Below, in pieces: positions 9,165 to 64,000 of a stretch of DNA of 64,000 bases; positions within the stretch are counted from its first letter, which is position 1; each line of letters opens with the position of its first letter. A model generated the notes under the pieces. That model did not search any database and was not told the origin of the DNA. It was given only the letters and a program-made list of their open reading frames with translations. Source of the stretch: Amphiscolops sp. MND2022 (Eukaryota). The stretch covers positions 12,092,001-12,156,000 of the forward strand of contig OZ076409.1 in assembly GCA_964187785.1 (NCBI GenBank). Reading direction: 5' to 3'. Both the position numbers and the translations under genes were made by a program.

Positions 9165-9172
9165 AAAGAAAG

Positions 9173-12100
9173 ATGGAAAATCAAAAAGCAACTGAGAGCG
9201 CAGGCTCTTCAAGTGAAGAAATCCCTGAAAGAGCAAACTCAAAAACCGAAAAGACACACCAGAAAATAACCCTACCAATATTCGAAAAACGCGGAAAACA
9301 GGAGGCGAAGCTATGGTGGAGACGATTCACACAGTGCATTAAAATGACCCAAAACATTGATCTCAACACGATGACCACAGACCGTGAGATACTAGAAAAT
9401 TACAGGGACGATCTGGAACACCGGATCAAAGATTTGTTTATTTGGGCATTGGGCGAATCAGCGGTAACGGAAATGACAAGAACCGTTAGGGACAATGACC
9501 CAAATCGAATGGACATAAATCAACTGTACTCAATATTCCGGTTACACTTCAGACCGGAACGAAACAAAATCCATAGTAGAGCTGACTTCTTTGGAATAAC
9601 AAGAGAGAAACACCAATCAGCAGAAGACGTGTGGACGAGAATTCTTCAAGTGAAAAAGAACTGCGAGTTCGAGAATGTAATAGCCGAAGTATAAGCGTCA
9701 AAGTTTCTCTCTGTAATTGGAAGATCAACAGGAGACTATGAACTAAAGAAGAAGATTAGAAAAAGTGACATGACGATAGAAACGATAACAGCATTGATAC
9801 ATGAATACATGTACGACCGACTAAAAGACTCGAACAATTCGAACGACGGAAAAAAAATGAAACACATACAAGAACGGCCATACAAACGAAAACGGACAGA
9901 AAAAACCGATGCAGACAAAATAAAGAAAAGATCGGAGTACCAAAAACAAAAACCAAAAGATACCGATGTGGACAATGCGGAGCACTAAAATGGCCAAGAC
10001 AACAAATCTGCACAGCAAAATCAGCAGAATGTAGAAAATGCAAATGAAGGGGCCACTACGAAAAGATGTGCAGATCGATGAGAAGAGTACAATACAAAAC
10101 AACATCTTCGGCAGAAGAAAATAATTGGGATTATGACAAAATCCAGAGAATAGAAAATACAAAACAAAAGAAAGGCTTTTACAACGCCACACTATTAGTC
10201 AACAACGTACCAATCAACTTCATTATCGATAGTGGATCGCCAGTAACACTTATTCCGGAATGCTTGTTTAGCAAATTTACACCAATGTAACCACTCAAGA
10301 CCACTTACAAAGATGTAAACAATCAAAAGATTGACTTTACATGACAGACGAAAGCAATGGTCAAAACAAACAAAAAAAACAATGGAACCACCACTATTAA
10401 TTACAAAAGCACAAACCGCCCCGTTAATGGGACTGGACAGGATGCAACGGCTGAAAATTAACTTGAATTCAAACAACGACGCAATCCAAATCCACAACAT
10501 AAATTTCGATAGCACAGAAAAAAATCATAAAAGGCCAGAACGACTTCAAAGAAATATTTTACAACAACAAAGAGATAAAGAATCTCTCGGTCAAAATAAA
10601 TTTAAAAATTGGAACACAGACAATACAACAAAGAGGACGACCAGTCCCAATACATTCACACAAACAAGTGGCATAAGAGCTGAAACGCCTAATAAAACAC
10701 GGCTATGTAGAAAAGGCAACAGAAATTACTGAAAACTGCTTCGTAAGTCCTGCGGTAATAACCGTAAAAAAGGACAAATCGATAAACATCGCACTCGATT
10801 CCAAAAAATTAAACGAAATTACTGTGATGCGAAAAGCACAAACGCCGAATATGGAAGAATTGATACAACGGATTTCAAGGAAAATATCTGAAGGAGGAGA
10901 CTGAGAAGTATTAGCAACAAAGCTTGACTTCGATTATGCATACGGACGAATCAAATTAGATGACGATACAAAAAAATTGTGCAAATTTACCGTCACTGGA
11001 GGTGATTTCAGTGGATACTACCGTTTCTTGAAAGGTTTTTACGGATTGGCATACATTTTCCAAGAACGGATAGACATGACGCTAGAACACAAACACACGA
11101 CTTGGTTAGACGATATAATAATTGTCACCAAAGGAAACCTGGAAAAACACGAAGCGGAAAGACGTGAAACAATGACGAAACTGGAAAAAGCAGGATATAG
11201 ATCAAATCCAAACAAATGCAAATTCTTCAAAAAAGAAATTGAATGGGTCGGTCACAAAATTGACCAACAAGGGATACGATCCCTGCAAGACAAATTGGAT
11301 GCAATAAAAAAGATCAACATACCAAAAAACGTAAAAGAATTAATATCATTTCTGGGGGCAATCCAATACTTGTCAAAGTATATTGAAAACCTATCAACAA
11401 ATACGGACATTCTACAAAAACTACTGAAAAAGCGAAACGAGTGGATCTGGACAGAAGAACATACGAGAGCGTTCAATAATTTGAAAGAATGTATCACAAA
11501 AATCCCGTGTTTAGCACACTACAACGCCCAAAGCGAAAACATAATTACAACAGACACCAGTACAAAAGGACTGGAGGCCACGCTTTGGCAACCACAAAAA
11601 ACCGGCAAATTAAAGCCAATTGGATTTGCAAGCCGATTTTCATCCGATACAGAAAAGAAGTACCCAATAAACGAATTGGAATTGCTAGGCGTTGTATGGG
11701 GTCTGGAATACTTTAGACTACATATCTACGGAAAACCAATTGAACTTTTAACAGATCATCAAGCGCTAGAACCATTGATCAAAAGAAATACGTCGAACAA
11801 AACATATAACGCGAGACTAACAAGATGGTTAGATCGCTTGGCTCACTTCGACATTAATATTAAACACATCGCCGGAAAACACTTAGCACTACCGGATTAC
11901 CTGTGTAGAAATCCAACATCAATGCCAGAACCCATCGAAAAATACGACGAAGAATACGTAATTAATTGCATAACACCATTACTTGAATTCATCAACAAGT
12001 ATGGCAGCAATTATGGAAAAATGAACAAAGAAGCGCGAACGGACGATATTGAGAAGCGTGAACAGAAATCCAAGCAATCAGAATCAAGCAAGCGGAACCA

Positions 12101-14398
12101 ACTGAAGTCAAAATAGAACAAAACAAACTAGCGCAGTTCGTTTCTACCTCAACTCAATACAGTCGATCGCAATACCATTAACAACGTCAAACACAATTAC
12201 GGAACAATAATGGACATTCGCAGCATTGGACAAATTGAAGCAGATGACCCGTTCGAACAAACATTACAGCTTGTGGACCGCTGGAAAGAATTAGTAAAAC
12301 CCGGAGAATATAGAACGTCTAAAGGAAGCTGGAAAAGGTAAAATCTCCCAAGACACCATAGAGCGGAAATAAAACGAACCGAGATGAATTTAAACCGAAG
12401 AAGGAATAGAATGCTCTGGAACCGCATGGAAAAACGAGACAAAGAACCCGAAGTTGACACCACAAAAAAAAACAACTTTACCGGGTGATAGAAAAAATCA
12501 GAAACAAGCCAAAAAACAAGACGGAGGACAAACAGAAACAAGTGACAACACAACGGAAGTAGAAAGCCAACCAGAAACAAACGAGACAGAACCAACAAGT
12601 TCCGCCGACTCATTCGATGTACCAGCAATTAACTTCAAAAGATACCTCGGTACGACCGGAGTAAGATACATCCAAATGGGACAGGCCAGTCACATCCAAG
12701 GCGAAATTAAATGGGTTTTAGAGGAAACCATCAGACAAGCTGAACAAAAATTACACCACGGATTTGAAAACAATTGCCACAGAAACAACTAATGACGAAA
12801 AGTTGCTAGAAACATTAGTATGTTTGGAAAAAAGAACGCTGGAGCAAATACCGGACGTTTCCAAATCATACCACAAACAGCTGTCAACACGATTCGGCGT
12901 AGTGTTTTACGACGACCGAATCATAATACCAAAATCACTGAGAACAACAATCATCATGCTCCTACACAAAGGACATGCGACAATCATGCGACAAAATGAC
13001 GACGGCGGCAAAACCATTCTGGTGGCCACGAATGACACGAGAACTACAACAAAAAAGTGACGAATGTACTCCGTGCAAAATGGCAGGTAAGAACATTAAA
13101 CCACAATTACCAATGACTGAGAATAATTATTTACCACCGATAGAGAAATCAAATCAAGAAATCCAATTGGATTTCATTGGAGCAATCAGATTTAAGCACC
13201 GGAGATTTTAAGCACCATATTACTTCCTATAGACCGGTACAGCAGATGGCCGGCCGCGTGCATATGTGAAGCCCCGAAAGGAAAAACAGCAAAAAATTTC
13301 CTGGAACAATATATTACAATAAATGGTTTACCACAAACCATCAGAACAGATGAAGGCACCGCCTTTACTGGAAAAGAGTTTAGAGAAATTTGTAAATCTC
13401 TAAAAATAAAGCTAATATATGGGACGCCATATATACACACACCAACCGGATTGGTGGAAAGAGGTATTATAACACTAAAAGATTACCTCAGAACGAATTT
13501 AGAAGAAGGCTACAATATAAACGAAGCATAAGCCGTTCACTAAACGTAATGAGAATAACGGTCCATTCTAGCATAAAAGAAACACCGTTCGAACGCCATT
13601 ATGGCAGAAAACCACGAACGGAATTTCATAACTATTTAAATATGTCACAAAACAAACATTATAATGTTTCAGCGAGACCGGAGACACTACAAGTCTACAC
13701 ATTCACCAATGGGAACGGAGCTTACGACCAATTGGTTATGAAAGGCTCAAGAAACTATAAGAAGACGTGGGTAACAAATTTCCAAACCTATTTCTTGAGA
13801 AAAATCAAAGCAAAGAAAAATTTGAAAGCGCATACGAAAATAAACCACAAACCGCGGTAACTGGAACAAAACAAACAATAGTAACCGATAAAATCAAAAT
13901 AATTCATAGGGAACGAATAAGCAAACCATTGAACCCAATATTTCAGAACCCATTATCACACCGGGGAGAAAACCCGAGGGGAAAGGACGGAAGATTCCTA
14001 CAACAAGGACAACTGGAAGAAGACACAGAGGATCTAGACGTAACGGCAGAACACTCAGAGAGATGTAGCACGCCAGTACTACAGAAGAACGTACTGGACA
14101 AATCACTGGAAATGGAAAAGACAACAATTAGTCCAGTGTACGGCAGAGGCCGAAAAAAATGATAAGAGACAGAAAATCAAATACAACCCCAACACCAGGA
14201 TTGGAAATAAACGCAAGACCAACCACAGAAGACGACCCGAACGTGATTACAGTAGTGGACCAACACGGTAATAATGATTCAATAAAAACTGAAAACATAG
14301 AAGAAATCGAAAACCAAAACGAACAAAGTATACGAAAGTCAACCAGACTAAGATCCACTAATCCAATAAATAGATATGGTAATCCAATCACGTTCTGA
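9173..14398 (+). pseudogene. gag-pol polyprotein of element A, disrupted by stops and frameshifts
   Basis: Gag from 9173; protease FIIDSGS (~10220); RT WLDD (11103-11114); RNase H TDTSTKG/INELELL/TDHQAL; integrase HKGH..WWP..CTPC, DFIG, RTDEG, VERG; C-terminal RKSTRLRSTNPINRYGNPITF. Split over many ORF-track fragments. Confidence 0.95.
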
Positions 14399-37370: not shown

Positions 37371-37591
37371 AAAACAGCAATTAACTAACTGAAGTGCAGA
37401 TTGTGGAGATTTGGCAGAATTTCGAAAAAAAAAACGCAACATAGATGATGATTTTTCTCCCCCCATCCATACACAAATAAATTTGCGGGGGAAAAGAACT
37501 ACCAAAATCATCTTACGTCAAATTTTGAAATGATTCATGTTTATCTGGTAAAAAAAGGGGGGTTAATTCGAGATTTTTTATTGTACCAGCT

Positions 37592-37970
37592 ATGACGTCA
37601 ATCGTGGCGAGAAAGAACTCGGACGGGCCTAAATTCACAGACGTGTACGAGCTGTTTGAAAAGATCGGACAGGGTGCGTTCAGTAAAGTGCACAGGTGTA
37701 TCCACTTGAAGGAAAACAAAGAGTATGCTGCCAAAATAATCAGCACCGAAAAGCTGAATGTGAGACAAAAAGACAAGCTGGATCGAGAAGCCAGAATATG
37801 TCGCATGTTGAGTCATAAATCCATCGTCACCCTGCATTTCACCTCGAACGAAGACAAACGATACTACATGGTGTTTGATCTCATTCAAGGGGGGGAGTTG
37901 TTCGATGATATTGTGGCCAGAGAGAACTACTGTGAACAAGATGCCAGTCACTGCATACAACAAGTGTTAG
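37592..37970 (+). CDS. CaMKII: Calcium/calmodulin-dependent protein kinase II, first coding exon (kinase N-lobe, 126 aa)
   Basis: [76 protein letters not shown] matches CaMKII closely. Acceptor TTGTACCAG at 37589 and donor AG|GTGAGT at 37971; the rest of the ORF-track ORF to 38125 is intron read-through. Confidence 0.93.
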
Positions 37971-38681
37971 GTGAGTTTTTCAAATGCATGAAAGGTTCTA
38001 CACCAAATAATATTTTCTGCCAGAATCATGTACGATTATTTTTTCATGGTTATCTTGCAAGACTCTTGCATGATCTGTGTTTCTCAACCAGGGATCACCA
38101 ATTTCATTATATTTTTCCGAAGTGAAAATAAAATGGTTCATTAGCAGTTCCGTTTATACTTATTTCCCTATACTTTTTTGTCGGTACGCCATCAATGACG
38201 TTTTGAAAATGGCATACTCTCACTGTCTACAGCATTTTTCTATAAGCAAACTTTTTGTGACATTTTTGAGCAACCAACATGCTGTTTTCTCGATAAAAAT
38301 CGACGACAAATAGTAATTGTCTGACTATGAAAGTTGGTTTACAAACAACTTTCTATTTTTAACTCTCTTTAGAAGTGTCCTCTAAAGGTCAACGATGCAA
38401 CACACGGAGGTAGCTGAGGTAGCCGTTGGTATAACCTAACGAGCTTCAAGAAGTTCGGATATAAAACCTCAAATCTGATAGGACGACGAAATAAGCAAAC
38501 TACAACATTGACTTTCGCTATAGCCAGTTGTTGTTTCCATGCATGGTCCCGGAATTTTCCATGTTTTATAAAAAATTAGACTGCATGTTTCCATGCAGCA
38601 TGTAAAAAGTTCAAGCAATCTCGGCTAGGGTAACTTTGACCGGTTTCAAACTTACATAATAGTTTCATCATTCCAAGCTCA

Positions 38682-38810: not shown

Positions 38811-41228
38811 CGTCTGAAGACCTCCTACTGAACTCGTATTGATAACCTTTGTATGTAAGGTAAACCTCGGAGTTTTTATCGGCGAAATCTCCACTACGCT
38901 ATATTGAGTTTTAGGAACCTGGAAAGAAAGCACAAAGATATCAAATTAACGATGTAAGAAAATTTAGCCAGAGGGTCGGAGAGAAACCCCAAGGGCGCAA
39001 CTCTTAGCAGAAACGTTTAAATTTGGTGAGTAAGTTTCGTTCTATAAGCGGGCAATTCTCTTCAAAAAGTCTCTCCGTGCTCAAGTTTTTCGGCTCAAGT
39101 CAATCGATCACGAAAAGAGATGTTCAATAATCCAATTAACTTTAATAGCGATAACCAAAACGTCTCTTCAATCGTTAGCAGATCAATATAATCTTGACTT
39201 TTTATCATACTGACATTTTCGTTACATACTGGGCGTCGGCGTCTTGAGTTAGCATGTATTTACCTTCATGTTTACTATTCGTTTCTTGGCAAGGCGAACG
39301 ACTTGGTTACTCTTCGGCCAAACATTCTTTGCCGTCAACGATAAATAATTCATCATCTTGATCGAAGAACACATTTCAATAATAATTCAAGTCACCTAAT
39401 CTATTTTTTTATATCGAGAAGATTGCTCAATGACCTTCAATTACATGATTTAAATGTCTTCTTTGCGGAAGGAGTACTTTTCCATCATTCTGAGAGCGGT
39501 TCATCGCGAATCGTTCCGCCAGACTGAATTGCATAAATTATCACGCAAACGGCGCTGATTTACATGTTTCTCGTGAGTTCTTTCATATGTTTCGGGGTTA
39601 CATCTAAAATGACCTTGAGGTCCATCGGTGACGTTGAAGTAATTTGTAGTCATCTAATGTCTCTATCTGCCAAGTTATATCATCCTAGCGTCAATGGTTT
39701 TCGAGTGACCTGATATGCGTATCATTTGTTTACTTAAGGCGGTTACCTCGGCATGGGTGAAACATACGGCTTCATTCAGTTTAACAATCGACTACATACT
39801 TTATTACGGTTCGTTTGAGGTATTACAGCCAAAGGCAATTGTCTTTTATCGGTCGGGCCCGCGCGTCCGGTCACGCGTGCCTTAAACGAACGTTACTCCG
39901 CGCGTGGTGGACCGATTAATGTATCTTTCATGTATATCACTCAGGGTTGCTAGCTGAACATCCTAGGCAAGTTTCATAATCTTCGGGTCGTCCGTTGGCT
40001 ATTTACATTTCATTCGGGTTTTTTTACATAGGGTCCGTGCTCCTCCTACACGCGTCATAGGGTTCGGAAAATATACGCAAACGGCTTAATATCATATGGG
40101 CTACCAATTCCATATGTTATATGAGTTATTCCTTGCCTGGCTGACGAATTCACTGGGGGTCGACCTAGGTCACTTTCGGTGTTAATAGCTCGGGACCGGG
40201 GGGAGGTACGAGGTCAGGTACTTCGAGTCGAAAGTTGAGTTAACACCTCTAGTTTATTAATGCCAAATTTCAGCTCGATTGGACTAGTCCATCTCAAAAA
40301 GGGGGTGGTGAGTTTTGGGGATGCCTCTCCTTTCCGCATAAAATAAAAACTTAGTAAAGTTCGCTCTCCAAGATGAATTCTGTCTTAGCGTGATTCGAAC
40401 AACAAGGTCGGTCTAAGTTCTATGCTTCGCGCATAAATGATAGGATTTTTCTAAAACGCCAAAAATTCAAAAGTTCCACAAACGGAAATAAATGGGATGA
40501 AACAAATCAATTTGTTTTGTGGCGAATGTTGGATGCAGATCGAACTCACGAAACGAAAAAACGTCTTCAAGTTTCAAGAATGTTTTTGGCGTTCACCAAC
40601 TCATTGAAGAAAAGTTTAGCACCAATAATGTTTTTGAAGGCTGATTATCTTCTTTAATCTCTCAGTTTTGGTTCCATGTAGCAAAAGGCGCTAGTTATAC
40701 TCAAAATCCGCCGATACCAAGCTGGCGAAAAATTTATTTGGTTTCTCGGTAGAAAGCAGGATACATTTGCCAAGCAAAATTTAAAGATCAAATCAAATAT
40801 TTGGAGTTCAACAGGTTACACATTTATGATTTTTGTTCTTTTTTATCATAGTCCAATATAGCCGTGCCCTAGTAACTTCGAAATTTTCAACAGAAATTTT
40901 GTCAGTATTTTGATATAAACCTTGCAAGATATTTCACTGGTGATGGAAGATTTTTGCAAGAAATAACTTTTTTGTCATATTCTTGCAAGACTTGCATTTT
41001 CTGCCAGATGCTCACAAGATTCTTTTTTTTTTCATGGCTATCTCGCAAGATTCTTACAATATCAGTTTTTTTTCTCAACAAGGTCACTGTCGAACGGAGC
41101 GACCGATAACAATGGAAAGTTCCGAATTTCCTATTGTTATTGGTCGCTTCGTTCGACAGTGACCTGGTTGAGAAAAAGGCTTGAGTCAATTCGTTTCTAA
41201 TATGTTTTTTGTGCACTGCATCCTGTTT

Positions 41229-41342
41229 GTTTTTCAGTTGAATGTGACAATCCGCTCAGCTACCTGCATATGGCATTATTGGCGTTCAGCTGTACAACCT
41301 ACCACACGTTGCTGAGCGAATTGTCACATTCAACCGAAAAAC
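41229..41342. repeat. Short foldback element with 32-bp inverted arms
   Basis: GTTTTTCAGTTGAATGTGACAATCCGCTCAGC ... GCTGAGCGAATTGTCACATTCAACCGAAAAAC, 2 mismatches, 50-bp spacer. Confidence 0.8.
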
Positions 41343-43585
41343 GACCAGGATCGATGCTTGGAACATTTGCATTCCGTGTATATCATATTTTTCGCGTCAT
41401 TGAAAAAGTATGCAGCAGCGGTATATCAAAACTTTTAATGTATGTACGTCAACCATTCTATGAATTTGCAAGTTTGGAAGGTAGCATTCTAGTCTTGATG
41501 AGAGGATTGTTTGGGCACGGGGTACTATCAAAACATCATTATTGAACGTTATTACCAAAATATTGCCATTGTACAATTTATACACGTCTGTTGAGTCTCA
41601 AAAATGTATTCGGATTTCATTGACCTCCCTGATTTGTTATTGTGATAGCACCACGAAAACTTTACAATTCCCAATACTTGCTCACTTTCAGTTTCGTTTA
41701 AAAACCGCGGTTAACCACCAAATTTTGCATAAGATTGGCAGAATTTTATATAGCTTCCTTGTTTTTACCCATACCAAAAATATTGGTTGTAGCTAAAGGC
41801 TCCTTCCTCGTTTTAGAGCCAATAGACACGCATGATTGGAGTTATACGAATATTTGCTTTTACTATTACGTAAACAGAACCCACATTATATGCTAGTATC
41901 CCCCTATATTCCCCCCATGTCCCCCCATAGCATGTAGAAGGAAAATAAATGCTTGTCGCCTTTTTGTCCAAATTCGCCATTCCTGTAGTCAACAATTATT
42001 TGAGTTACTTCCAAAGAATTCATCGATGAAAAACCGGCTCCGCAGGATGTGTTTGTCGAGTTATATCGAGAACTGTTTTCAAAAAACGAACAGGAAAAAA
42101 GGTTCCATAATGCTATAACAAGTACCAAAAAAAAACAAAAATTTCCAGTATTTTATTATTCTTATACAAGTTTTGAAAAATTTCTGATTGTTCTCGTTGA
42201 ATGATTATCTGTATTATCCAACAACAAAACAAATAATTCTTAAGCAAAATTTACCACAGAAAAAACTTGATATAGAAATGATTTTTATCGTACATCCAGG
42301 GTTAAATTGGTTTTTAAAAGGGATTTTTCTAAAAAAGATTCACAACATCCCAGAATGTCTGAAATATCCAATGAAGGGACTCTTTCTTTGGTCTCAAAAA
42401 TGCATTTTCCGAAGTGAAAACATCAAAAAGGTGAGGGGACCTTTTGATGAGATCAAAAAATTGGTCAAAAGAAGTCACACAAAGCCGAAAAACCTACTGG
42501 GCAAACCTTCGGTCTCGTGGCGTTCTGTAATTAGGTAAATAAGTGGATTAATCAAAGATGGATTCTTTGGCCCTTCGGATGCTGTCTAGATTTTAGGCTA
42601 AAAGTCTCTTAAAAATCGAATCAATCAGATCGAGTGTGTGTTCAAGAGAAAAAGAACTAAAGACTCGAATAGCCGGGAATGTTTTCCAAGACAAAAAGGA
42701 CTAAAAGGAATTCACAAAAGAAATATGGCGCCACCTTGGAAACAGAGTTTTTTCACTTCTTTTACGTGGCCTGCCCATTGCAACAATATGGTGTTAGGAC
42801 ATTTCATTCTATGCAATTTCAACCGTTGTCATTCCAATCGCTCACAATTTCAACTTTTTGCATTTTCGACCATCCACAATGTCGACTTCAACTACTTTTG
42901 GCCGACGGGTCATGATTAGTTATATTGTTACTTTAGGGGGGTTTCATTTTCATACATTCCCAAAATTTAGGCAGTTTTTCTCGTTTCTCGAGGATATGCT
43001 TTTTTTCTCCGGTTCATATAAAGCGTTTTCTCCTGGAAAGGTTAATTACTTTTCTACGCACAAGTTTTTTTTTCATGCAATTTTTTTGAGGTGTTCTGTC
43101 TAGGGAAAACCGTTTTTCGTGTCCTATTGTTTTTGAGCTTAAAGGGTCACACCCTTGGGTAAATTCGGCGCTGTACGACTTTTGTTGAACATTTTGCTCT
43201 CAGAAATAGCACATAATTGGGTTTCCGTAATATTTTCAGTTAAGGAATACTTTCTTTACATGCTGAAATGTCTCCCTTCGGAAATGTTCTAATGCAATAG
43301 TGTACAAAAATTCCGCGATTTCATTGAGCCTCTTGTTTGGCTCTTAGTGTCGAGGATGTTGTTATCGATTGCGTAGTAACAGAACCGGTTGTGATTGAGA
43401 ACAGTACGCATATCCTCAATTTTCATTGATCTCGTCCTTCGTCGAACCATTTCCATTCGCATCCGCAACTCGGCGAAAACTAAATACCTTAGTCTGTGTG
43501 CGTTTGGACCAAGAAAGCCAATTCGATTTATATGCGGTATATACCAAATAAATTCATCTTTGTATCAAAATGCCGCTAAGATTAC

Positions 43586-43776
43586 TGTTGTATCTCAAAA
43601 ATAAGTATGAAAAGAATGTAATGCTGAAGCTTCTATTCTGTATCAATGTATAAAGGTTAAGTGAATAGGTCAGCATATGTATGTTGGATGGTAGTACTAT
43701 TGACTGGTACTAAATTGTCAGTACTACTATTTTTAGCACGTATGTAAATAAGTATATAATATGACGTCATGTCACA
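43586..43776 (-). repeat. 3' LTR of element B
   Basis: Direct repeat of 49284-49474, adjacent to the PPT and TSD. Confidence 0.97.
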
Positions 43777-44058
43777 TTCCCCCTTCGTTCGGGATGTAAG
43801 TGTACATGCAGTGTAACTATAAATAAATATAACAAAAATGAACTCAAAAGTAAACTCAAATTTCAAACGCTAAATATAGCACCGAATGGTCAAAATGTTT
43901 GTTTCTATTTTAGGTACGGTTTCCACCGTACAATCCTCTTCTTCTTCTTTTGCCGGTTTTCTTCTTTTTTGTGATTTTACTCCTTCCGGTCGTTGTTTCT
44001 TGCTTCTTTTACTGGCTGTCGTTTGCGTTCCATTTGTTAACGGTGTTACCTGTAATAG

Positions 44059-47000
44059 TCAGAATGTGATTGGATTGCCATATCTATTTATTGGATTAGT
44101 GAATCTTAGTCTAGTTGACTTTCGTACTTTTTGTTCGTTTTGGTTTTCATTTGATTCTATGTTTTCGGATTTTATTGAATCGGTATTATCGTTTTGGTCT
44201 ACCACTGTGATTACGTTCGGATCGCCTTCTGTTGTTGGTCTTGCCTTAATTGTTGTTCCAGGTGTTGGTGTGTTCTTTCTGTCTCTGATTAACTTCTTTC
44301 GTCCTCTGCCGTCCACTGGACTGATATTTGTGTTTTCTCAGTCTAGTTCTGGAGTCATTGGGGTCAGTGCGTTGTTTAACCCTTTTTCTTCCAGCACCGT
44401 TTAATCCAGCTGCATCTTTCTGAGTGTTCCGCTGTATTGATGTTTTCCTCCTGTTGTTCGATCGTTGTGAACCTTCCATCTTTTCCCCTCGGGTTTTCTC
44501 CTCGTCGGGATAGGGGATTCTGAAATATTTGGTTTAATGGTTTGCTTGCTCTTTTTCTATGTACTATTTTGTTCGTGTCCGTTATTATGGTATGTTTTGT
44601 TCCGGCAACGGCCATTTGTGGTTTGTTTTCGTACATACTTTCAAATTTGTCTCTATTTTGTTTTCTTCCGAGAAAAAGGTAAGGGAATTTGTTACTCACG
44701 TCTTCCTTTAGTTTTCTCGGGGTTTTCATTACCAGTTGATCGTATGTTCCATTTCGGTTGGTAAATGAATACACTTGCAGCGTCTCTGGTCTTGCTGAAA
44801 CATTGTATTGTTTATTAGGTGACACATTCAAGTAATTATGAATTTCCGTTCGTGGCTTTCTACCGTAGTGGCGTTCGAATGATGTTTCTTTTATGCTTGA
44901 ATGGACCGTCATTCTCATTACATTTAATGAACGGCTTAATGCCTCGTTTATTACGTACCCTTCTTCGAGATTTGTTCGTAAGTACTTTTTCAGTGTTTTG
45001 ATTCCTCTTTCTACCAAACCGTATGGATATACGGTGTTCCGTAAATTAATTTTATGTTTAGTGATTTACAAAAATCTCTAAATTCCTTTCCGGTGAAGGC
45101 CGTGTTTTTATCTGTTCTTTTGGTTTGTGGTAAACCATTTAGTGTTATGTATTGTTCCAAAAAGTTTTTTGCTGTCTTTCCGGTTGGTGCTTCACAAATA
45201 CATGCCGCCGGCCTTCTGCTATACCGGTATATTGAGAGCAGTATGTAAAATCTCCGGTGTTCAAATCTTATTGGTCCAATGAAATTCAATTGGATTTCTT
45301 GGTTGGTTTTTTCCGCCAGTGGTAAGTAATTAATTTCGGACATTGGTAATTGTGGTTTAATGTTCTTACCTGCCATTTTACACGGGATGCACTCCTCGCA
45401 TTTTTGCTGTATGTCCCGTACCAGTCGTGGCCACCAAAACGGTTTAGCTGCCGCTGTGATTTTATATATGGCCGCGTGTCCTTTGAGTAGTAACATTATA
45501 ATGGTTGTCCTGAGTGATTTTGGAATGATAATTCGATCGTCGTAAAATACCACACCGAATCTCGTTGATAGTTGTCTTTGGTAGGCTTTGTATTCTTCTG
45601 GGATTTCTTCTAATGTTCTTCGTTCGAGACATACTAATGTTTTCAGTAGTTTCTCGTCATCGGTTGTTTCTTTGGCGATTGTTCTCAGGTCGGTTGCGAA
45701 TTTCTGCTCCGCTTGTCTGATTGTTTCTTCTAAATCCCATTTGTTTTCTTCTTGTATGTGACTGGCTTGTCCCATTTGAATGTATCGGACATCGGTTGCT
45801 CCGATGTATTTTTTGAACTTTATTGCGGGAACGCCCAGCGATTTTATTGAACTTGTTGATTCTGTTTCTACTTCTGGCGAATCTTCTTGTTCTTGTGTTT
45901 TACTGCTTGTTCCTAGATGTTTTTCCCGTTTTTGTGGCAGGTTTGGGGTTTTTTCAAAAACCCGGTACAGCTCATTTCTTCGTTCGGTTTCTTCTTCTGT
46001 TTCGCCATCTTGTTCTTCCATGCTGTCCCAGAGCATTCTGTTTCTTCGTTGGTTCAGAGTCATTTCTATCCGTTTTATTTCTGCTCTGTGGTGTCTTGGC
46101 GGGTTATATTTTTTCCAAACTCTGTTTGATGTTCTGTATTCTCAAGGTTTGACTAGTTCTTTCCAGCGTTTCGTCAAATTTAATGTTTCTTCTGAATGGT
46201 CTTCTTTTTCGATTTGTTCGATTCGTCGGATGTCCGTTGTTATTTCTTGAACGGTTTGAATCGTATTGAGTTTATATGTATCGACTGTATTTGAATGTGG
46301 TAGCGATGAACTGCGTTTGTTTGCTTTGTTCCTTTTTGGCTTCGGTTGGTTTGGTCTGCTTCGCTCTGATTGGTTGATGGTTTGTTCACGCTGTTCGCTT
46401 TGGTCCGTTCGCGCTTCTAATTTCTTTTGACTGGCGACGCTGCCATAATTGTTGATGAACTCAAGTAAAGGCATTATGCAATTAATTACATACTCTTCGT
46501 CATAGTTTTCGATCAGTTCTGGTTTTGAAATTGGATTTCTGCTCAGATAATCGGTTAGTGCTAAGTGTTTTCTGGCGATATGTTTGATGTTTATATCGAA
46601 ATGAGCCAAGCCGTCTAACCATCTTGTTAGTCTTGCACTATTTGTTTTGTTCGTTCAATTTCTTTTAATTAATGGTTTCAACGCTTGGTGGTCTGTTAGT
46701 AGTTCTATTGGCTTTCCGTATTTGTATAGTCGAAAGTGTTCCAATCCCCACACTACTGCCAGTAGTTCTAATTCATTTATCGCATATTTCTTTTCTGTGT
46801 CCGATAAATATCTGCTTGCGAACCCGACTGGTTTTAGAGTTCCATCTTTCTGTTTTTGCCATAACGTTGCCCCCAGTACTTTTGTACTGGCATCTGTGGT
46901 GATTATATTTTCGTTTTGTGCTTTATATTGTGCAAGGCATGGTATTTTGGTTATACCTTCTTTTAATTCGTTGAATGCCTTTGTGTGTTCATCTGTCCAA

Positions 47001-49267
47001 ATCCATTCGTTTTGTTTTTTCAATAATTTTCTCAGTACATCTGTGTTTGCTGACAGGTTTTCGATGTACTTCGATAAGTATTGTATTGCTCCCAGAATTG
47101 ATTTTAATTCTTTTTCGTTTTTTGGTATGTTGATTTTTGTAATGGCTTCTAGTTTATCTTGTAGTCGTCGTATTCCTTGTTGGTCAATTTTATGTCCGAC
47201 CAATTCGATTTCTTTTCTGAAGAATTCGAATTTTTTTGGGTTTAGTCAATAGCCGGCTTGTTCCAATCTCTTCATTGTCTCCCGAACTCCTGTTTCGTGT
47301 TCGTCAATGCTTCCTTTGGTGACTATAATGATATCGTCTAACCATGCCGGGTGTTTGTGTTCAAGTGTCGTGTCTATCCGTTCTTGAAAAATTGTTGATA
47401 TATCGGCCAATCCGAAGAATCCTTTCAAGAAACGGGAGTATCCAGTAAAGTCCCCTCCTGTTACGGTGAATATACAAAGGTTTTTTGTATTTTCGTCGAG
47501 TTTAATCTGACCATACGCGTAATCGAAAACTAATTTTGTTGCCAAAATCTCGCCTTCTTTTCCTTCGGCTATCTTTCTTGATATCCGTGAAATTAGCTCT
47601 TCCATATTTGGCATCTTAGTTTTTCTTTTTTCTGGAGTCGAGAGCAATTTTTATTGATTTGATTTTTCTCATTGTAATCACTGCGGGGCTCACAAAACAA
47701 TCCTCGGTGATTTCCGTTGCTCTTTCTAAGTATCCGTGTTTGATAAGTCGCTTTAGTTCTAGTGCCACTTGGTCTTGTAGGTGTATTGGGATAGGTCTTC
47801 CTTTTTGTTTTAATATTTGTGCCCTTTCTTTTAATTGTACTTTGACTGAGAGATTTTTTATCTCCTTGTTGTTGTAGAATAAATCATTGAAGTCGTTCTG
47901 GAGTTTTATTATTTTCTTGTCCATGTTGTCTAGTTTTATAGTGTGGATTTGGATTGCTTTGTTATTTGAACTCAGGCTGATTTTTAACCGTTGCATCCAG
48001 TCCAGTCCCATCAATGGTGATGTTTTTGCTTTTGTGATCAGTAGTGGTAATTCAATTGTCTCTTTGTTTGTTTTCACCAGTGCGTTGGTTTGTCCAGTAA
48101 ATTCAATCCTTTGATTGTTTACATCTTTGTAAGTGGTCTTGAGTGGTTTAATTGTAGTTATGTCGTTGAATAGACACTCCGCAATAAGTGTTACTGGTGA
48201 GCCGCTGTCTATGATGAATTTTTTTGGTACGTTGTTGACCAATAGTGTTGCGTTGTAGAAATCTTTCTTCTGTTCTTTATCGTTTATACTTTGGATTCTA
48301 TTGTAATCCCAAGTGTCTTCTTCTGCTGATGAAGGTGTTTTTTCGATGTAATGAACTCTTTTCGTGGATCTGCACATTTTTTCATAGTGTCCTCTTCTTT
48401 TACAATTTCTGCATTCTGCCATTTTCGCCGGGCATATGTGTTGTCTTGTCCAGTTTGGTGCGCCACATTGTCCGCATCGGGTATCTCTTTGTTTATATTT
48501 TTGATTTTCCGGTCGTCTTTTCGATTTATCTTGATCGGTTTTATCTGTCCACTTTCTTTTGTATGGCCGTTCCTGCACATGTTTAATCTCCTTTCCGTCG
48601 TTTGAATTGTTCGATTCGTTCAATCGGTCGTACATGTGCTCATGTATTAATGCTGTTATGGTTTCTATAGTCATGTCACTCTTTCGAATTTTCTTCTTTA
48701 TTTCGTAGTCACCAGTTGACCGTCCGATTACAGAGAGAAATTTTGAGGCTATTAGTTCGGCTGGTGTCTCGAACTCGCAATTCTTTTCTACTTGTAATAT
48801 TCTGGTCCACACATCTTCTGCTGTTTCATGTTTTTCTCTAGTTATCCCAAAGAAATCTGCTCTTCTGTGAAATTTGTTTCGTTACGGTATGAAGTGTAAC
48901 CGGAACAGTGAATACAGTTGGTTAATGTCCATTTTATTTGGATCATTATCTCTAACGGTTCTTGTCATTTCCGTTATCGCTGACTCGCCCAGTGCCCATA
49001 TAAATAAATCTTTGATCCGGTGTTCCAGATCGTCTCTGTAGTTCGGCAATATTTCACGATCTGTTGTCATTTCGTTGAGGTCGATGTTTTGGGTCATCTT
49101 TATGTACTGGGTAAATCTTCTTCACCATAATTTTGCCTCTTGTATTCCCCGTTTCTCGAACGTTGGTAACGTAATTTTCTGATCAGTTTTTCTGTTTTTG
49201 CATTTGCTCTTTCGGGGATTTCCCCACTTGATGAGCTTGTGCTTTCTGATGATTTTTGACTCTCCAT
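44059..49267 (-). pseudogene. gag-pol polyprotein of element B, disrupted
   Basis: ATG at 49267. The ORF 47616..48812 carries gag knuckles (CGQCG..HICPAK..CRNCKRRGHYEKMC), protease IIDSGS and the RT start in one frame. RT WLDD at 47333-47344; RNase H TDAST/ELELL/TDHQAL; integrase WWP..CIPC, RTD, VERG. Several stops and frameshifts. Confidence 0.95.
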
Positions 49268-49283
49268 CTTGTTTACTGTGCCA

Positions 49284-49474
49284 TGTTGTATCTCACAAAT
49301 AAGTATGAAAAGAATGTAATGCTGAAGCTTCTATTCTGTATCAATGTATAAAGGTTAAGTGAATAGGTCAGCATATGTATGTTGGATGGTAGTACTATTG
49401 ACTGGTACTAAATTGTCAGTACTACTATTTTTAGCACGTATGTAAACAAGCACATAATATGACGTCATGTCACA
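49284..49474 (-). repeat. 5' LTR of element B
   Basis: Adjacent to the PBS and TSD ATTAC; matches the 3' LTR. Confidence 0.97.
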
Positions 49475-53765: not shown

Positions 53766-53950
53766 TTTTGTTACCAAAATATCTAAACTTTCTGACCAAT
53801 CAGGTAAGCGCAAATTTCAGTCGTCGCTTTCGTTGTCGGCGCTTTTTCGGATATTACCGTAATATCCGAATAAGCGCCGACAACGAAAGCGACGACTGAA
53901 ATTTGCGCTTACCTGATTGGTCAGAAAGTTTCGCTATTTTGGTAACAAAA
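53766..53950. repeat. 185-bp near-perfect palindrome
   Basis: 92-bp arms symmetric about C53858, with 3 mismatches counted. Confidence 0.95.
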
Positions 53951-57385: not shown

Positions 57386-59813
57386 TGCACTGAATTTGAT
57401 CAATTTTCCACAAAATCGGACTGTCTCTGAGCTAGGGTCGGGTCATCGATTCCTGAACCCTAGCCAAAAAGTGGTTGCATTTTCGTAACCACCACAAAAA
57501 TTAACGTTAGTGCCGAAAATTTGGTGGGCGTATCGCTCACCAAAGTCGAGAAAAGCTCTCTGACATTTCGACCTCAGAGAAGCGTAAAAGGACCGAAAAA
57601 ATCCAAAACTGCAGGACTGTCAGTGCCTTATACCTAACGGGCACAACCAATTGAGGGTTTATCCCAGTGCTACGGATAGTGGGGCGACACGTTGGTCCCA
57701 TTTTGCCCGCCGTATCACTTTCTGAGGTGATCCTCTTGGTCAATTTGTGAAAAAAGTCGTCAAAAACAGTGTTTTTTCGTGTACAACGTACATAGTGGGC
57801 CGAAACCTCAAATAAGCGCTCGCGCTTCAATTCGACCCTTTTAGTGGCATTGTAGGTGCCCACTGACATAAACTACCAAGTTTGGTGCCGATTTGTGTGA
57901 TACTTGTCGAGAAAATAGGAAAAACGCGGTGCCCAAAAAAGTGCGCAAAAAGGCAGTTTTTTCTTAATTTTTCCAAGTAACCCGGGTACCTTAGCCGACG
58001 GGTGGGTCTATATTGCAGCCCACCATCGTAACCTCTGCTAGTTCCTACGTTGCTGCAGAGAATTTGAGCTTGCTAGCTCCGTCCAGTGGACCGCAATCTT
58101 GAAAAAGACGTGAAAAACCGTGTATTTCGGTACATAGTGGTACCGCACGTCTGTACCTAGGTGAAACTGTGTAGAAGAGGTGCAGCTCAATTCTGTGTTC
58201 ATTTTCGTAAACCTACGTGTACCTAAGATCTGCTGGTCAATTTTGGGCTTGATACAGCGCTTCCAGCGCACACACGAGCCTCTTGAGTGTTGTGGTGCGA
58301 TTTTTGGAAATTTCAAAAATTGTTCGAATTTCTTCCTGTGGGTGACTGGAGACTTTTTGCCCTAAACCAGGTTGATTTTCTGGCCCATTGTGCTTGTGGG
58401 AAAGCGCGGTGCAAATTTGAACAGCCTACGAGCCTTGGAACGTGTTTTGAAAAATCTTGGACGTTGAAAAACATCAATTTTCTTAAGTCCTCACCGAGAC
58501 GAGCAGAGGGCCAAATCCTTGAGGAGACCCCCTGCAAGCATACCAGCGTCTGTTTTACTATTCTAACAGCGTGGTTGGTGCCTACTGACAGCGTTTGCCA
58601 AGTTTGGTGTCAATCGGTACTGTATCTGTTGAGAAATTGACTAAAACAAACTGCACAAGAAGGTGCGCAAGAAGACGAAATCTACGAAGTCTTGTGGGAT
58701 TGCTTGAACACCTTATTCAAAGAGTGGGGCCAAATTGCTGCCCTCTATCGTAATCAGTGCAAGTTTATCGTACTGTTGCCGAAAAAAACGAGCCTGGGAG
58801 CTCTTTGCTGTTTGCCGGAATCTGAGTTGACACGTGAAGAACACTGCATATTGGAACACGGTGATACGGAACGTCAGTATCAGATCTAAATCTTGCCCAG
58901 TGGTCTGAATTCTCATTGGTTGTTACTGTAGTGTAGCTGGCTATACGTGTGATCGCGTGACCAATTTTGAGCCCGATACCACGTTTCCAGCACTTGTAAA
59001 AGCCATTTGAGTGATTTTCGAAAACAGTTGAAAAATCCAAAAATCGTTGAAAAAGGCTCTAGCTCGAAGCTGGAGGCAATCATCAGCTACGGAAGGTTGT
59101 TTTTCTGACTTGAGTGGCTGACAAATTGTGCTGTGTCATTTTGTACCCAGTACGATTGATAAAACTGAATTTGACTTTGTCCAGACACACGTTTTGAACA
59201 AAATTCCAAAAAACACCGGAAAGTCTATCACTGTAAATCGTCAATACTTCCGCTGTACAGGAGGCAGACCCAAAAAGCCTTCATTTTCCAACGGAACGGA
59301 CTCAGTAGACCTTCCTGGGTGCAAACGAGGCAAATCCTACGGTTCAAAAAAATTGCCGGCAGGGGTCATAAATTTTGGACTCCTCTGGAACTTTGAAATT
59401 TGATCCTGAACAGCTCAAGGCAGCAGTTTTAAGTGCCTGCGACGCACTCTGGTCTACATTTTTCCAAACGAAAATCTCTAGGAGTTACCTTGAGCAGGGT
59501 TTTCGACATTCAAAAGAGACCCTGTGAGTTCCGACTTAGCCAAAATCACGAGATTTTGAGAGGAGCAACTTCCTAGTGACAATAATTTGACCGGATTGCC
59601 CGAGTGTGTCACCTTTTTGAACGCTCTGGTGCCTCATTTTGGTGTTATTTCGCTGTATCGAGTAGCACCAACGCCGAATATTACGCCAAATTTGCAGAGA
59701 ACTCTTTTGGGCAATTGCAAAATACCCAAATCTCTCGAGGTTGAGAGGCGAAATTGCTACTGAGTTTGCTGAAAGACTCCTTTGAGCCACATCCTGCTAC
59801 ATCTAACGCTGGA

Positions 59814-62800
59814 ATGAAACCTTCGGAACAATTCCAACGCCTCTGCTTCTTTTTGAAGGGGGGAGAGGGGACCAGCGCAGCACAACCAATCGATGAACCG
59901 GCCTCGATATCTTTGAACAACGCAACCATGGGCATGGCTCACACGTCGCCTAGGGATCGAGGCGGGTTGCTCGAGAGCAATCATGGTACTGATGACCCAA
60001 AAGATGAATTGATATCTCCCGAACAGTTGAAATTCACGGAGGCGATATCCAAAACTATAACTAAAGCGTTGGCTCCCTTGATTGCCAATCGTGATCAAAC
60101 CGCTGTTCGACCAACCTTATACAGAGGTTCGAAAGACGGGACTGTTGAAGAGTGGTTGCTCGTGATGAAACGGTATTTGGAGCGAGTTTATTCCAATGCT
60201 TCACCTGACGACAAGGCCTGGGCGATAATCGATCACTTAGGTGATGAAGCTCGGAGTTTTATAATCAACAAACCGGAGTCCGAACGGGATTCTCACGAGA
60301 AGGTGACTGCCTTGCTCTCCAGCAGATTTGGGACTGGGAAAAGCCGCTGGCCAGTGAGGCAGGCTTTCAGGTTGCGGAATCAGCTTGAGAAAGAGGGCCT
60401 GATGCAGTATCTAGATGCATTAGAGGGTCTGAGGAGTCAGGGTTTTCCTGATGAGCCTATCACAACCCGACGCTATGAAATCTTGCATCGGTTCATGGAT
60501 GGGGTCAGCGATCCCGTGTTGCAACGAGAACTGACGGTAGTGTTTGCGACTGAGGCGTATCTAGCCGACCCACCTACCGTGGAATCACTTCGGTTCACGG
60601 TGCAGGAACTCCAAAGGAGTCGTCACCAACAACAGCCTCGTGACCCAGAGTGCACCGAGACTGTACCTTATCAGTACCTACAGAGCAACCAAGTGCAGGG
60701 GTCACCAGTGACCCAGCAGTATGAATCGCTGCCACCCCTTGCACGCCGGTCGGTGCGATTGCCGATGCCGGCTGCGTCAGTACACACAACCCCTGAATAC
60801 AGACAGACCGCAACCTTAGAGCAATCCGCGCGCTGCTTGCAGAGTGCTTGCGCGAGACGCAAGCTGGTGGTGCATCGCCCGGAGCATATTCTTGACCCAC
60901 ATAGTGAGCCCCAGCAAGGTGCTGCAGCAGCGATTCCAGCGCCTGCTGTCCCAGTGAAATCGTGCACAACTGAGGTGTCTCCAGGTTGTCCAACATTGTC
61001 AATCCAGTCAGAAACTTCCAGCCCTAGGGCTGAAGAAAAGAAGAAAACGGATGCAACGCAAACCCTGTCTACTGCCTCTGGCAGGGTATTAATGCTACGT
61101 CCAGCTGACCAAGCCACCGTAAATGCTCCATTGACTGTCACCTGTGGCACAAAGCAGGTGCAGACAGGTTTGGAGTCCACAACGTTTGACCCTAGTGGCC
61201 GGACTTTATTGTCTGTACACCTAGTGCTGGCCTCGGAGCAACAAATACGCCCAGATTTGACTTTGGAAAAATTGAAGCTGGAGTTAGCTAGCAATCCGGC
61301 TGTCAAAAAAATCTCCTTACCACTGCCAAAAGAATGGTACACTGAAGGCGAAGCTAGCACATGCACGGCATACTCGCCTGTTCCTGTGCACGCCAACATA
61401 GATGGCGTGGACATGAAATTTGATGCTAGCGTGGTAGTAGATGTGTTCCCTCAAGGAGTGTGTCTAGGGCCACATGAATTACGCTGCTATAGCATCAGCA
61501 AGCAAGAGCCCACAGGTGAGGCCCGCATAGATGAGCGTGCGTCGCTCGTAGTATCTTTTGCAGTGCCAGATGCCAACCCTATTCCACTGAGAGGAATGGT
61601 CGACACGGGGTCAGGCGTGTCAATCATGAGTTTCTCAGCCTTCAACCGTGTAGCCTTGCGGACTGGTGTAGCGCTACAACCTTACCGAATCGACTTGTAT
61701 GCTGCTAATGGGAAGACGATGAAAACTTTTGGAATAGCGGAGCGTGTGCGCTTCCAACTTGGTGGATATGAACTCGAAACAAATTTCGTGGTCGTTGATG
61801 ACGCACATGGTTTGGAAGATTTCTTGCTGGGTAGGAATTTTCTGCGAGCATACAACGTGCTGGTAGATCTGACCTCCATGAAAATTGTGGTGCGAGCACC
61901 GGCTAAGCCTGTGTGGCATCACGCACACGCCCAGACGAGTGACGAAGCTTTATCCAGCACAGTAGTCTTGGATCAAGACGTAGTGCTCCAGCCATTTGAA
62001 CGTGCTGTTTTACGAGCTAAGTTGGTCACTTCGAACTTGGAAGCTTTCGCTTTCAGTAATGTTGTGATTAACTTTGCAACACCGAACCGATTGCTGAAGA
62101 ACACTATATTCGTGGAAGACACTATAGCCACTGTTGGAGAGACAGGTTCGTTCTATGTCTCTGTTGGCAATCTGACAAGCAATGCCCAGAAAGTGAAGTG
62201 CGGCACCATGCTTGGTACTGCTGCACCAGTACGCCTAGTCTACCATGCAGTTCCCCAAAGTGTGCTAGCGCATAAAGGCGACAGTGACGAAAAATCGGAC
62301 TCCCCAAATGAGTTCGTCAACAGGGTCTATTCTGAAATGGACCTGAACTCGCATTCAAGATGTTCGTCGTCGTCGGAGTTCGAGTTTCTCTCCTCTACAG
62401 ACCCATCGGAGGAGGGGTTGTCAGAGCGCGAGATCAGAAAGCGCACTGACCCTGATCTCTTGGCCCCTATTCCTGGACCCGAATCTCAGTTAGAGGAGGT
62501 ACAAAAGTTGTGGGGGAAGACTGCCCGCGACTCGCTGAACAACATCCTTACGGAATTTGATGACCTATTCATGAAGCACAAAGCAGACATTGGTCGCTGC
62601 ACAATAGCCAAGCATCCTGTTGAGTTGGAGCCTGGGGCTACACCGCACCGTGAAGGCGCGAGAAGAATGTCGCCCGACAAGGCGGAGCGCGCTAATCAAG
62701 AAGTACGCAATCTCCTGGCTTTGGGCATGATCCAACCTTCGCTATCACCTTGGGCGAGTGGGATTGTGATGGTAAAAAAGAAAAATGGGGAGTTGCGATT

Positions 62801-64000
62801 CTGCTGCGACTTTCGCCCCCTCAACGCTGTCACAATAAAGGACGCGTATCCCCTCCCACGCATCGATGAAAGCCTTTCACGCTTGGGTAAGGCCAAGATT
62901 TACACCAGTATTGATTTGGCCTGGGCTTTCTGGCAGATACCAGTCCGCAAAGCAGATAGGCAGAAAACGGCCTTTGCCTGCAAGCTGGGTTTGTTTGAGT
63001 GGAGACGTATGCCCTTTGGGATGTGTAACGCTTCAGCTACTTTCCAGCGAGCAATAGCGCGAGCGCTACGGAAAATTGTGAACCGGGAAGGAAGCATGGT
63101 GATGGCGTACATTGACGACATCGTCATTGCTACCGAGACAGTCGAGGACCACATGGTACGCTTACGCGAGGTATTTGAATGTCTGCGCGAAGCTGGCTTC
63201 AAAATGAGAGTCGCTAAGTGCGACTTTATGAAGTCGGAAATCAAGTACCTGGGACGTGTGGTCTCTGCCGAAGGTATCAAACCTGATCCTAAAGCAGTGG
63301 TAAAACTACGCGATTGGGAAGTACCGAGGAACAAAACGGAGATGCAAAGCTTTTTGGGCTTCGCCAACTATTATCGAGAGTTTATTCCTTGGCACGCCAA
63401 GCTTGTGGTCCCCTTGCATGCTATTACCGGCCTGGGCGCGACTTTCGCCTGGGGGGATGAGCAGCAACAGGCTTTCAACACCGTCAAATTGGCTTTGATC
63501 GAGGCAACTGCCTTGGCGCAACCGGACTCGGAGGGCGAATTTGTGCTGGACACTGATGCCAGTGCTGTTGCAATTTCCGGCATTTTGCATCAATGGCAGG
63601 GTCCTCCGGGCGAAAGGCGCCTGAGACCAATTGTGTATGGTAGCAAGAAGTTGAATGCCAGTCAAGCGAAGTATGGCGCTCCCAAGCTTGAAATGTACGC
63701 AGCTTATTATTTCATCTTGAAGAATCACAGTTATCTCTGCTCCAAAAAGTTCATCCTTCGGGTTGACAATCAAGCTCTCTCTTGGCTCAAAACGTATTCC
63801 ACTGATCAGGCCTTGATTGGTCGATGGATTATGGCACTCGAGAAGTACCATTTCAAAGTGGAGCATCGTCCCAGGACACAGCATAGGAATGCCGATGGCC
63901 TCAGTAAACGAACCAATGATTATCGGTGGCGAGAGAAGCAGCTCGAGAAGCTGCCAGCTGTGACAGACAAATGGAATTTCCTCTCACAGGAGGAGTTTGA
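59814..64000 (+). CDS. Intact single-frame gag-pol polyprotein of element C (>1395 aa, 3' end outside the window)
   Basis: Frame-3 ORF after the stop at 59742, first ATG at 59814. Capsid-like Gag (YRGSKDGTVEEWL..RFG..FRLRNQ), protease DTGSG (61602), RT (MPFG, YIDD at 63108, KYLG) and RNase H (DTDAS, KLEMYA, VDNQAL, NADGLS) all lie in one frame. No in-frame stop was found, consistent with its absence from the ORF track. Confidence 0.95.
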   Translation, partial: MKPSEQFQRLCFFLKGGEGTSAAQPIDEPASISLNNATMGMAHTSPRDRGGLLESNHGTDDPKDELISPEQLKFTEAISKTITKALAPLIANRDQTAVRPTLYRGSKDGTVEEWLLVMKRYLERVYSNASPDDKAWAIIDHLGDEARSFIINKPESERDSHEKVTALLSSRFGTGKSRWPVRQAFRLRNQLEKEGLMQYLDALEGLRSQGFPDEPITTRRYEILHRFMDGVSDPVLQRELTVVFATEAYLADPPTVESLRFTVQELQRSRHQQQPRDPECTETVPYQYLQSNQVQGSPVTQQYESLPPLARRSVRLPMPAASVHTTPEYRQTATLEQSARCLQSACARRKLVVHRPEHILDPHSEPQQGAAAAIPAPAVPVKSCTTEVSPGCPTLSIQSETSSPRAEEKKKTDATQTLSTASGRVLMLRPADQATVNAPLTVTCGTKQVQTGLESTTFDPSGRTLLSVHLVLASEQQIRPDLTLEKLKLELASNPAVKKISLPLPKEWYTEGEASTCTAYSPVPVHANIDGVDMKFDASVVVDVFPQGVCLGPHELRCYSISKQEPTGEARIDERASLVVSFAVPDANPIPLRGMVDTGSGVSIMSFSAFNRVALRTGVALQPYRIDLYAANGKTMKTFGIAERVRFQLGGYELETNFVVVDDAHGLEDFLLGRNFLRAYNVLVDLTSMKIVVRAPAKPVWHHAHAQTSDEALSSTVVLDQDVVLQPFERAVLRAKLVTSNLEAFAFSNVVINFATPNRLLKNTIFVEDTIATVGETGSFYVSVGNLTSNAQKVKCGTMLGTAAPVRLVYHAVPQSVLAHKGDSDEKSDSPNEFVNRVYSEMDLNSHSRCSSSSEFEFLSSTDPSEEGLSEREIRKRTDPDLLAPIPGPESQLEEVQKLWGKTARDSLNNILTEFDDLFMKHKADIGRCTIAKHPVELEPGATPHREGARRMSPDKAERANQEVRNLLALGMIQPSLSPWASGIVMVKKKNGELRFCCDFRPLNAVTIKDAYPLPRIDESLSRLGKAKIYTSIDLAWAFWQIPVRKADRQKTAFACKLGLFEWRRMPFGMCNASATFQRAIARALRKIVNREGSMVMAYIDDIVIATETVEDHMVRLREVFECLREAGFKMRVAKCDFMKSEIKYLGRVVSAEGIKPDPKAVVKLRDWEVPRNKTEMQSFLGFANYYREFIPWHAKLVVPLHAITGLGATFAWGDEQQQAFNTVKLALIEATALAQPDSEGEFVLDTDASAVAISGILHQWQGPPGERRLRPIVYGSKKLNASQAKYGAPKLEMYAAYYFILKNHSYLCSKKFILRVDNQALSWLKTYSTDQALIGRWIMALEKYHFKVEHRPRTQHRNADGLSKRTNDYRWREKQLEKLPAVTDKWNFLSQEEF

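Follow-up and report, generated by a model that had tools for sequence, protein, structure and literature searches.

LTR-element proteases are described as single-domain enzymes that work as homodimers, and fused live copies are lethal in HIV. The locus analyzed here—part of a 64,000-nucleotide stretch of DNA, referred to as the window in the following—raises the question of what a second protease-like domain is doing directly ahead of a canonical protease on the same polyprotein chain. An earlier note on this DNA had proposed a retropepsin-like domain with a degenerate catalytic triad D-P-S, which either forms a single-chain, pepsin-like pseudo-dimer with the active protease or delays polyprotein processing in a frameshift-free gag-pol. 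Here, we refer to the upstream domain as D1 and to the canonical protease (PR) as D2, and ask whether D1 bears a protease fold, whether it is retained among relatives, and what role it might play.

The element and its domain layout

The gag-pol frame lies on the forward strand (59745..63998) and comprises 1418 codons in a single stop-free frame that is still open at the window end. It begins with a capsid-like gag region (60087..60629, approximate boundaries drawn from conservation), for which three more distant relatives match PNMA PF14893 below the Pfam cut-off. A spacer follows (60630..61079), which is of low conservation in the relatives compared and free of CCHC zinc knuckles. Such knuckles are absent in frame from the window copy and from all five close relatives, and present in 8 of 10 others. 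The window's subfamily, having lost them in frame, nevertheless includes several copies whose open frames are long, and may package its RNA differently or move in trans.

D1 (61113..61508) and D2 (61518..61889; DTG at 61602, end of the LLGR motif at 61835) come next. Downstream of D2 lies a beta-rich domain (61947..62264), a lead for a possibly dUTPase-like fold from weak Pfam matches, mainly of relatives: these match Herpes_ORF11 with E=0.033 and 0.25, and the sole Pfam match of the window copy is CBM-like_2 (E=0.006). This domain is followed—still within the interval between PR and reverse transcriptase (RT)—by a Ser/Glu-rich motif, which is well conserved in near relatives. The frame continues with RT (62772..63254; Pfam RVT_1, E=1e-35) and RNase H (63450..63848; Pfam RT_RNaseH_2 and RT_RNaseH). 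Pfam thus gives the order PR, RT, RNase H in the window, which stops before the integrase; in the relatives P0067, P0094, and P0371, the integrase comes after RNase H. P0094, a full-length relative, carries gag, a pair of CCHC knuckles, D1 and D2, RT, RNase H, and integrase within one frame of 2966 aa. A PDB sequence search with RT–RNase H returns the Ty3 RT as best match (E=1e-68), with retroviral RTs at E values of at least 9e-36. Judged from its sequence, the element that hosts D1 belongs to the Ty3/gypsy-type LTR elements and sits in a eukaryotic genome rich in repeats.

P0094 additionally bears a long tail past the integrase (residues about 2670–2966), which has no Pfam match at 0.01 and no useful PDB sequence match; by eye, we presume it to consist of one or two macrodomain-type repeats.

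A predicted protease fold in D1

D1 spans about 130 aa directly upstream of the DTG protease and in the same frame, and simple sequence comparisons do not reveal its nature. BLASTP of D1 against D2 from the window copy alone yields E=36 and hence no pairwise support, and Pfam lists no family of relevance for D1. A PDB sequence search with the window D1 returned two rows (E 0.65–0.79), neither of them a protease, and PDB sequence searches with D1 profiles returned no relevant match. A D1 profile made from close relatives scored 16.2 against D2, which is under the best of 100 shuffles (19.3). This changes with a broad profile to which distant families were added (14 rows at <85% identity out of 88 full tandems): D1 and D2 profiles then match over 92 columns with a probability of 76.8%, E=2.1e-5, and a score of 34.6, compared with a maximum of 19.6 in 150 column shuffles (mean 11.5, sd 2.2) and 11.3 for the reversed profile. 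The match rises above chance because of these distant relatives; the window alone gives none.

Structure prediction points in the same direction. The core of D1 is predicted with a pLDDT of about 87–97 in both AlphaFold runs. For the first model, all 22 D1-covering rows among the VIA top 50 are compatible with an acid-protease fold: 20 carry titles of retroviral or aspartic proteases, and the remaining two, 9iy9 and 2pma, we take to have an acid-protease-compatible fold. The best rows are foamy virus PR (Z 6.8, rmsd 3.3, 90 aligned) and EIAV PR (Z 6.7, rmsd 4.3, 95 aligned), with HIV, FIV, and APRc among the other leading ones; these Z values for D1 (5.9–6.8 against retropepsins) lie under the VIA caution mark of Z=8 and are weak when taken alone. 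It is the uniformity of this match list together with the D1–D2 profile match that makes the prediction of an acid-protease (retropepsin) fold for D1 a firm one. A retropepsin-like domain ahead of the protease, as claimed in the earlier note, is hence borne out by both profile–profile and predicted-structure comparison. An Atlas search adds little: the window D1 finds only bacterial clusters scoring under 0.9, and the D1–D2 unit of a relative finds single-domain protease clusters of 118–157 aa in the nine rows listed, which are no evidence on D1 because D2 alone explains them.

In comparison with D2, D1 carries a predicted extra helix (in both models) and a four-residue insertion past the catalytic position. 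It likely originated when the element's own protease was duplicated in tandem long ago. Applied to the clade's own D2 domains, the D1 profile scores 0.3–20 bits, with less than 3 bits in 4 of 14—a weak test—and 0.4 bits or less on three segments from outside the clade.

D2 itself is canonical. It matches Pfam gag-asp_proteas with 37.3 bits (cut-off 28.2), and the D2 part of the tandem model aligns to Ddi1 in VIA with Z 12.8 and rmsd 3.3 over 111 residues. D-T/S-G is kept in D2 of 82 of the 88 tandems and, combining this motif with the LG-R motif and a retropepsin fold, D2 is predicted to be active. Retropepsin dimers depend on the Thr/Ser, the Gly, the Arg, and hydrophobic residues; in the tandem alignment, the corresponding positions (Thr/Ser, Gly, Arg, and the hydrophobic residues 262/264) are fixed in D2 and variable in D1.

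The catalytic position of D1

The DTG at 61602, the D-P-S at 61188, and the single stop-free frame are all present as the earlier note had described, yet its assignment of D-P-S as the degenerate triad has to be rejected. The profile alignment sets L-E-S-T of D1 opposite V-D-T-G of D2, which places a Glu (61173..61175) where D2 has its catalytic Asp, and the Asp of D-P-S (61188..61190) off this position, in or just past the loop insertion. By this register, the triad reads E-S-T in the window and S-E-P, G-S-M, or G-T-G in relatives. Glu occupies the catalytic column in 60 of the 64 tandems from the window's lineage; Ser does so in all 18 tandems of three sister families and Gly in all six of the two most divergent families. 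Asp is found there in 1 of 88, and D-T/S-G—the motif of an active retropepsin—in none of the 88 D1 domains. The hydrophobic-hydrophobic-Gly(-Arg) motif of D1 retains its Gly in 85 of 88 tandems and its Arg in 20 of 88, belonging to two of the nine families. One divergent family, whose D1 reads G-T-G and retains an ILGR motif, displays a near-intact protease signature minus the Asp. Lacking D-T/S-G, D1 is taken to be catalytically dead. At the column of Asp 61188, an Asp is likewise found in 60 of the 64 tandems belonging to the window's lineage, and the other 24 tandems lack this column; some role for this conserved residue is conceivable.

Spread and conservation of the tandem

With the tandem as query, 72 proteins were recovered from 2892 candidates, and a D1 profile picked up 157 from 1.84 billion representatives; all D1 carriers with a listed source are ENA proteins (10 of 150 profile matches looked up). 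A search with RT uncovered sister families with an RT identity of 51–58%, which also bear a D1-like domain just before PR, and a further profile search seeded with the two most divergent families yielded just two more carriers. No relatives were found in metagenome contigs.

Throughout, D1 and D2 occur together. Of 115 informative D1 ends, 110 are followed by D2—the other five look decayed—and no different neighbor of D1 was found at any of them. Conversely, D1 precedes D2 in 102 of 103 D2 matches with upstream room, the exception being an unrelated plant protein. Among 56 proteins with both RT and D2, 20 begin too near D2 to judge; of the 36 informative ones, 35 carry D1, and the single miss resembles an internal deletion. 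In an RT tree of 24 rows, 16 D1 carriers and three rows without a PR region form one clade (100/100), with five named outgroups falling outside; a long-branch warning applies to this tree. D1 was not matched in these five outgroups, which is a weak test as only one of them has a recognizable PR.

Compared with five near-family relatives, D1 is 47–64% identical, the capsid-like region 53–67%, D2 64–83%, and the spacer 16–27%. This pattern points to purifying selection on D1 at the protein level. The conservation that the earlier note had left to be checked is therefore found in two forms, as retention in nearly all informative relatives and as identity at a capsid-like level. Individual copies with deletions also occur: in P0315, a single copy, an in-frame internal deletion takes most of D1, and in P0071, likewise a single copy, an in-frame deletion removes the latter half of D1 together with most of D2.

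The proposed tie to a frameshift-free gag-pol is weak. The window bears a single frame, and of 39 tandems whose upstream sequence is long, 38 have a capsid on the same protein. For the two most divergent families, however, the called proteins start 6–115 residues before D1 (7/7 with an intact D1 start), and no capsid match was found in their 24 members; from gene calls only, this suggests a separate pol frame. The link of D1 to a single gag-pol frame is thus partial.

Geometry of the tandem

How D1 packs on D2 was addressed by two AlphaFold models, both built on shallow alignments of 38–47 rows. The first has a pTM of 0.48, a poorly folded D2, and no confident packing, and is therefore of no use for the interface. 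The second, from the broad alignment (38 rows), reaches a pLDDT of 81 and a pTM of 0.74, which suggests a defined D1–D2 packing; hereby, what can be said of the interface comes only from the pTM, the predicted secondary structure, and the ranges that align. Compared with tethered HIV dimers and pepsins, the second model aligns both domains in order with an rmsd of 11.7–15.6 and a TMq of 0.25–0.33, and the first gives an rmsd of about 17 over both lobes. VIA aligns single lobes of the second model, for the tethered dimer 3ka2 with 101 of 203 residues. A two-copy complex prediction, run without an alignment, scored 0.28 (mark 0.32) and counts neither for nor against any arrangement. Going by the tandem models, the packing of D1 on D2 is predicted to be non-pepsin-like.

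The linear arrangement is tight. From the glycine of the LG motif in D1 to the Asp of D2, there are 41–50 residues in all nine families, and HIV PR 1–99 maps on model residues 147–264, leaving a D1–D2 linker of about three residues. In the model, strands at 136–142 and 148–151 span the junction of the two domains.

A single-chain pseudo-dimer—with D1 sitting on the dimer face of D2 in a pepsin-like manner, contributing no Asp of its own to a one-Asp site, and keeping the protease zymogen-like until D1 is displaced or cut—would draw on just this arrangement: the uniform spacing, a linker as short as in engineered tethered dimers, which have comparably short ones, and a D1 that always travels with D2. 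It is disfavored by the geometry, since neither model fits tethered HIV dimers or pepsins with both lobes at once and only one lobe is aligned at a time, even though the linker length fits. Moreover, the conserved Thr-Gly is missing from D1, the Arg is retained in just two of the nine families, and in the window's lineage the loop is extended by an insertion. We consider this form of the earlier claim unlikely and, going by the models, less likely than a tethered brake or scaffold. The broader idea that the clade replays, within a retroelement, the duplication and fusion that have been proposed for the origin of pepsins, with the dead lobe as zymogen lock on polyprotein processing, appears to us equally doubtful.

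A possible role for D1

Our favored, still tentative reading is that D1 is a retained dead duplicate, acting as a tethered brake or scaffold on a D2 that still homodimerizes. An ancestral protease would have been duplicated in tandem, and the first copy, having lost its Asp, would have been kept. The tail of D1 might then pair with the first strand of D2, as the strands at the junction suggest—the same strand that HIV-type proteases use in the terminal sheet of the dimer. Such pairing would delay D2:D2 association to the stage at which the particle becomes crowded with polyproteins, or until D1 is cleaved away, a role that would parallel the N-terminal transframe region of HIV-1, which is described to block premature autoprocessing (PMC8537868). 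Activity would most likely arise from D2:D2 pairing because a D1:D2 pair has one Asp and lacks the usual dyad, the need for which is presented as established for clan AA catalysis (PMC2761423). A dead first copy might persist because two live tandem copies would cut too early and be selected against; for tethered PR copies in HIV Gag-Pol, premature processing and no infectious progeny are reported (PMC8537868). We count in support of the brake or scaffold the fixed D1–D2 order, the loss of D-T/S-G in D1 with its retention in D2, the conservation of D1 throughout a deep clade, and a second model that is confident yet not bilobed. The uniform D1–D2 spacing counts against it, as this would fit a tethered two-fold dimer equally well.

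D1 might also have been recruited away from protease control altogether—for oligomerization, nucleic-acid binding, or particle structure—and be released as a separate mature protein. This would agree with a psi-loop that varies freely (E, S, or G) around a kept core, with the predicted extra helix, which is very basic in the two most divergent families, and with further apparently non-catalytic modules in the same polyproteins. However, no neighbor other than D2 was found at the informative ends of D1, and the tight spacing and the pTM of the second model suggest contact with D2; we regard an independent role as somewhat improbable. Far more remote is an unusual active site, in which a Glu or a displaced Asp of D1 replaces one Asp and completes a single-chain active protease with D2: the Glu and the Asp five residues on, each found in 60 of the 64 tandems from the window's lineage, invite the thought, yet in the remaining 24 the catalytic position is taken by Ser or Gly and the column of the second Asp is absent, and the models are not bilobed. 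Just as hard to credit is a functionless relic of duplication, given that D1 stays in frame with a capsid-like conservation across families at 50–58% RT identity.

Comparison with known systems

With Ty3/gypsy elements (Metaviridae), the clade shares the order of capsid-like region, PR, RT, and RNase H, and the integrase in full-length relatives. Their PR is single-domain, whereas the clade studied here adds a protease-fold domain ahead of it; clan AA proteases are outlined as having one domain in LTR retroelements and two in pepsins (PMC2774666). In another gypsy element of the window (47616–48881, reverse strand), the interval from knuckle to PR leaves no room for a D1-like domain.

The nearest precedent for the tandem in the sources consulted is Wendovirus, an endogenous member of Caulimoviridae, which is likewise reverse-transcribing and has two close aspartic-protease domains (PMC9794742). 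There, the proteases are described as lying in different ORFs and as both recognized by Pfam, and the authors reject a duplication (PMC9794742). D1 and D2, on the contrary, are adjacent on one chain, and D1 is invisible to Pfam and bears no catalytic motif. Pepsins (family A1) also combine two clan-AA lobes per chain, whose similarity is described as mainly structural besides the psi-loop motifs (PMC2761423), and have an Asp from each lobe arranged about a two-fold axis; the D1 lobe has no Asp, and the tandem model is not bilobed. Engineered tethered HIV-1 protease dimers (PDB 1hvc, 3ka2) are likewise two PR units with a short linker, reported also within the polyprotein (PMC8537868). These are artificial, with both units live, and lethal, whereas D1–D2 is natural, common across its clade, and has one unit dead.

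The retroviral "pseudoprotease" segments resemble D1 in name and in their PR-adjacent position only. They have been identified as dUTPase (McGeoch 1990, by its title as cited in PMC4261571; PMC7354474), and this identity is ruled out for D1 by its predicted acid-protease fold. In the window, the possible dUTPase-like domain sits after D2 and is separate from D1.

A Foldseek search of BFVD with the tandem model matched soymovirus proteins labeled as uncharacterized (Q919G1, E=3.2e-4; P15634, E=1.5e-3), which suggests a second protease-fold protein in these plant viruses. Soymovirus ORF VII is described as a separate small ORF, unfused to the protease (PMC3289790).

Within the accessible part of the full-text literature, we found no description of an in-frame tandem of a dead and a live protease in an LTR retrotransposon; Repbase, Dfam, GyDB, CDD, and subscription journals lay outside this scope and might hold an annotation. 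As a layout of a Ty3/gypsy polyprotein, the conserved D1–D2 tandem is apparently undescribed.

Implications and further elements in the window

An abundant clade, with clusters of 575–2442 member sequences, has kept a fused dead protease copy through deep divergence. The tandem thereby offers a natural system for the timing of protease activation in retroelements, especially where gag and pol share one frame, and bears on the intermediates between homodimeric retropepsins and bilobed pepsins. With about 260 residues, the D1–D2 unit is easy to express. Since Pfam misses the protease fold of D1, similar cases elsewhere may lack annotation.

Besides the element described, a different, A-rich gypsy family is represented in the window by two decayed copies, at 43586–49474 on the reverse and 9167–13860 on the forward strand. 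The former is flanked by direct repeats (191 nt, 98% identity) and bears a single ordinary PR. An open frame on the reverse strand (37529–38125) resembles, by eye, the N-lobe exon of a Ca2+/calmodulin-dependent protein kinase. Two further structures are possibly MITE-like: a near-perfect inverted repeat at 53766–53950, with 92-nt arms at 97% identity, and likewise near-perfect inverted repeats at 41069–41351, with arms of 54 and 47 nt.
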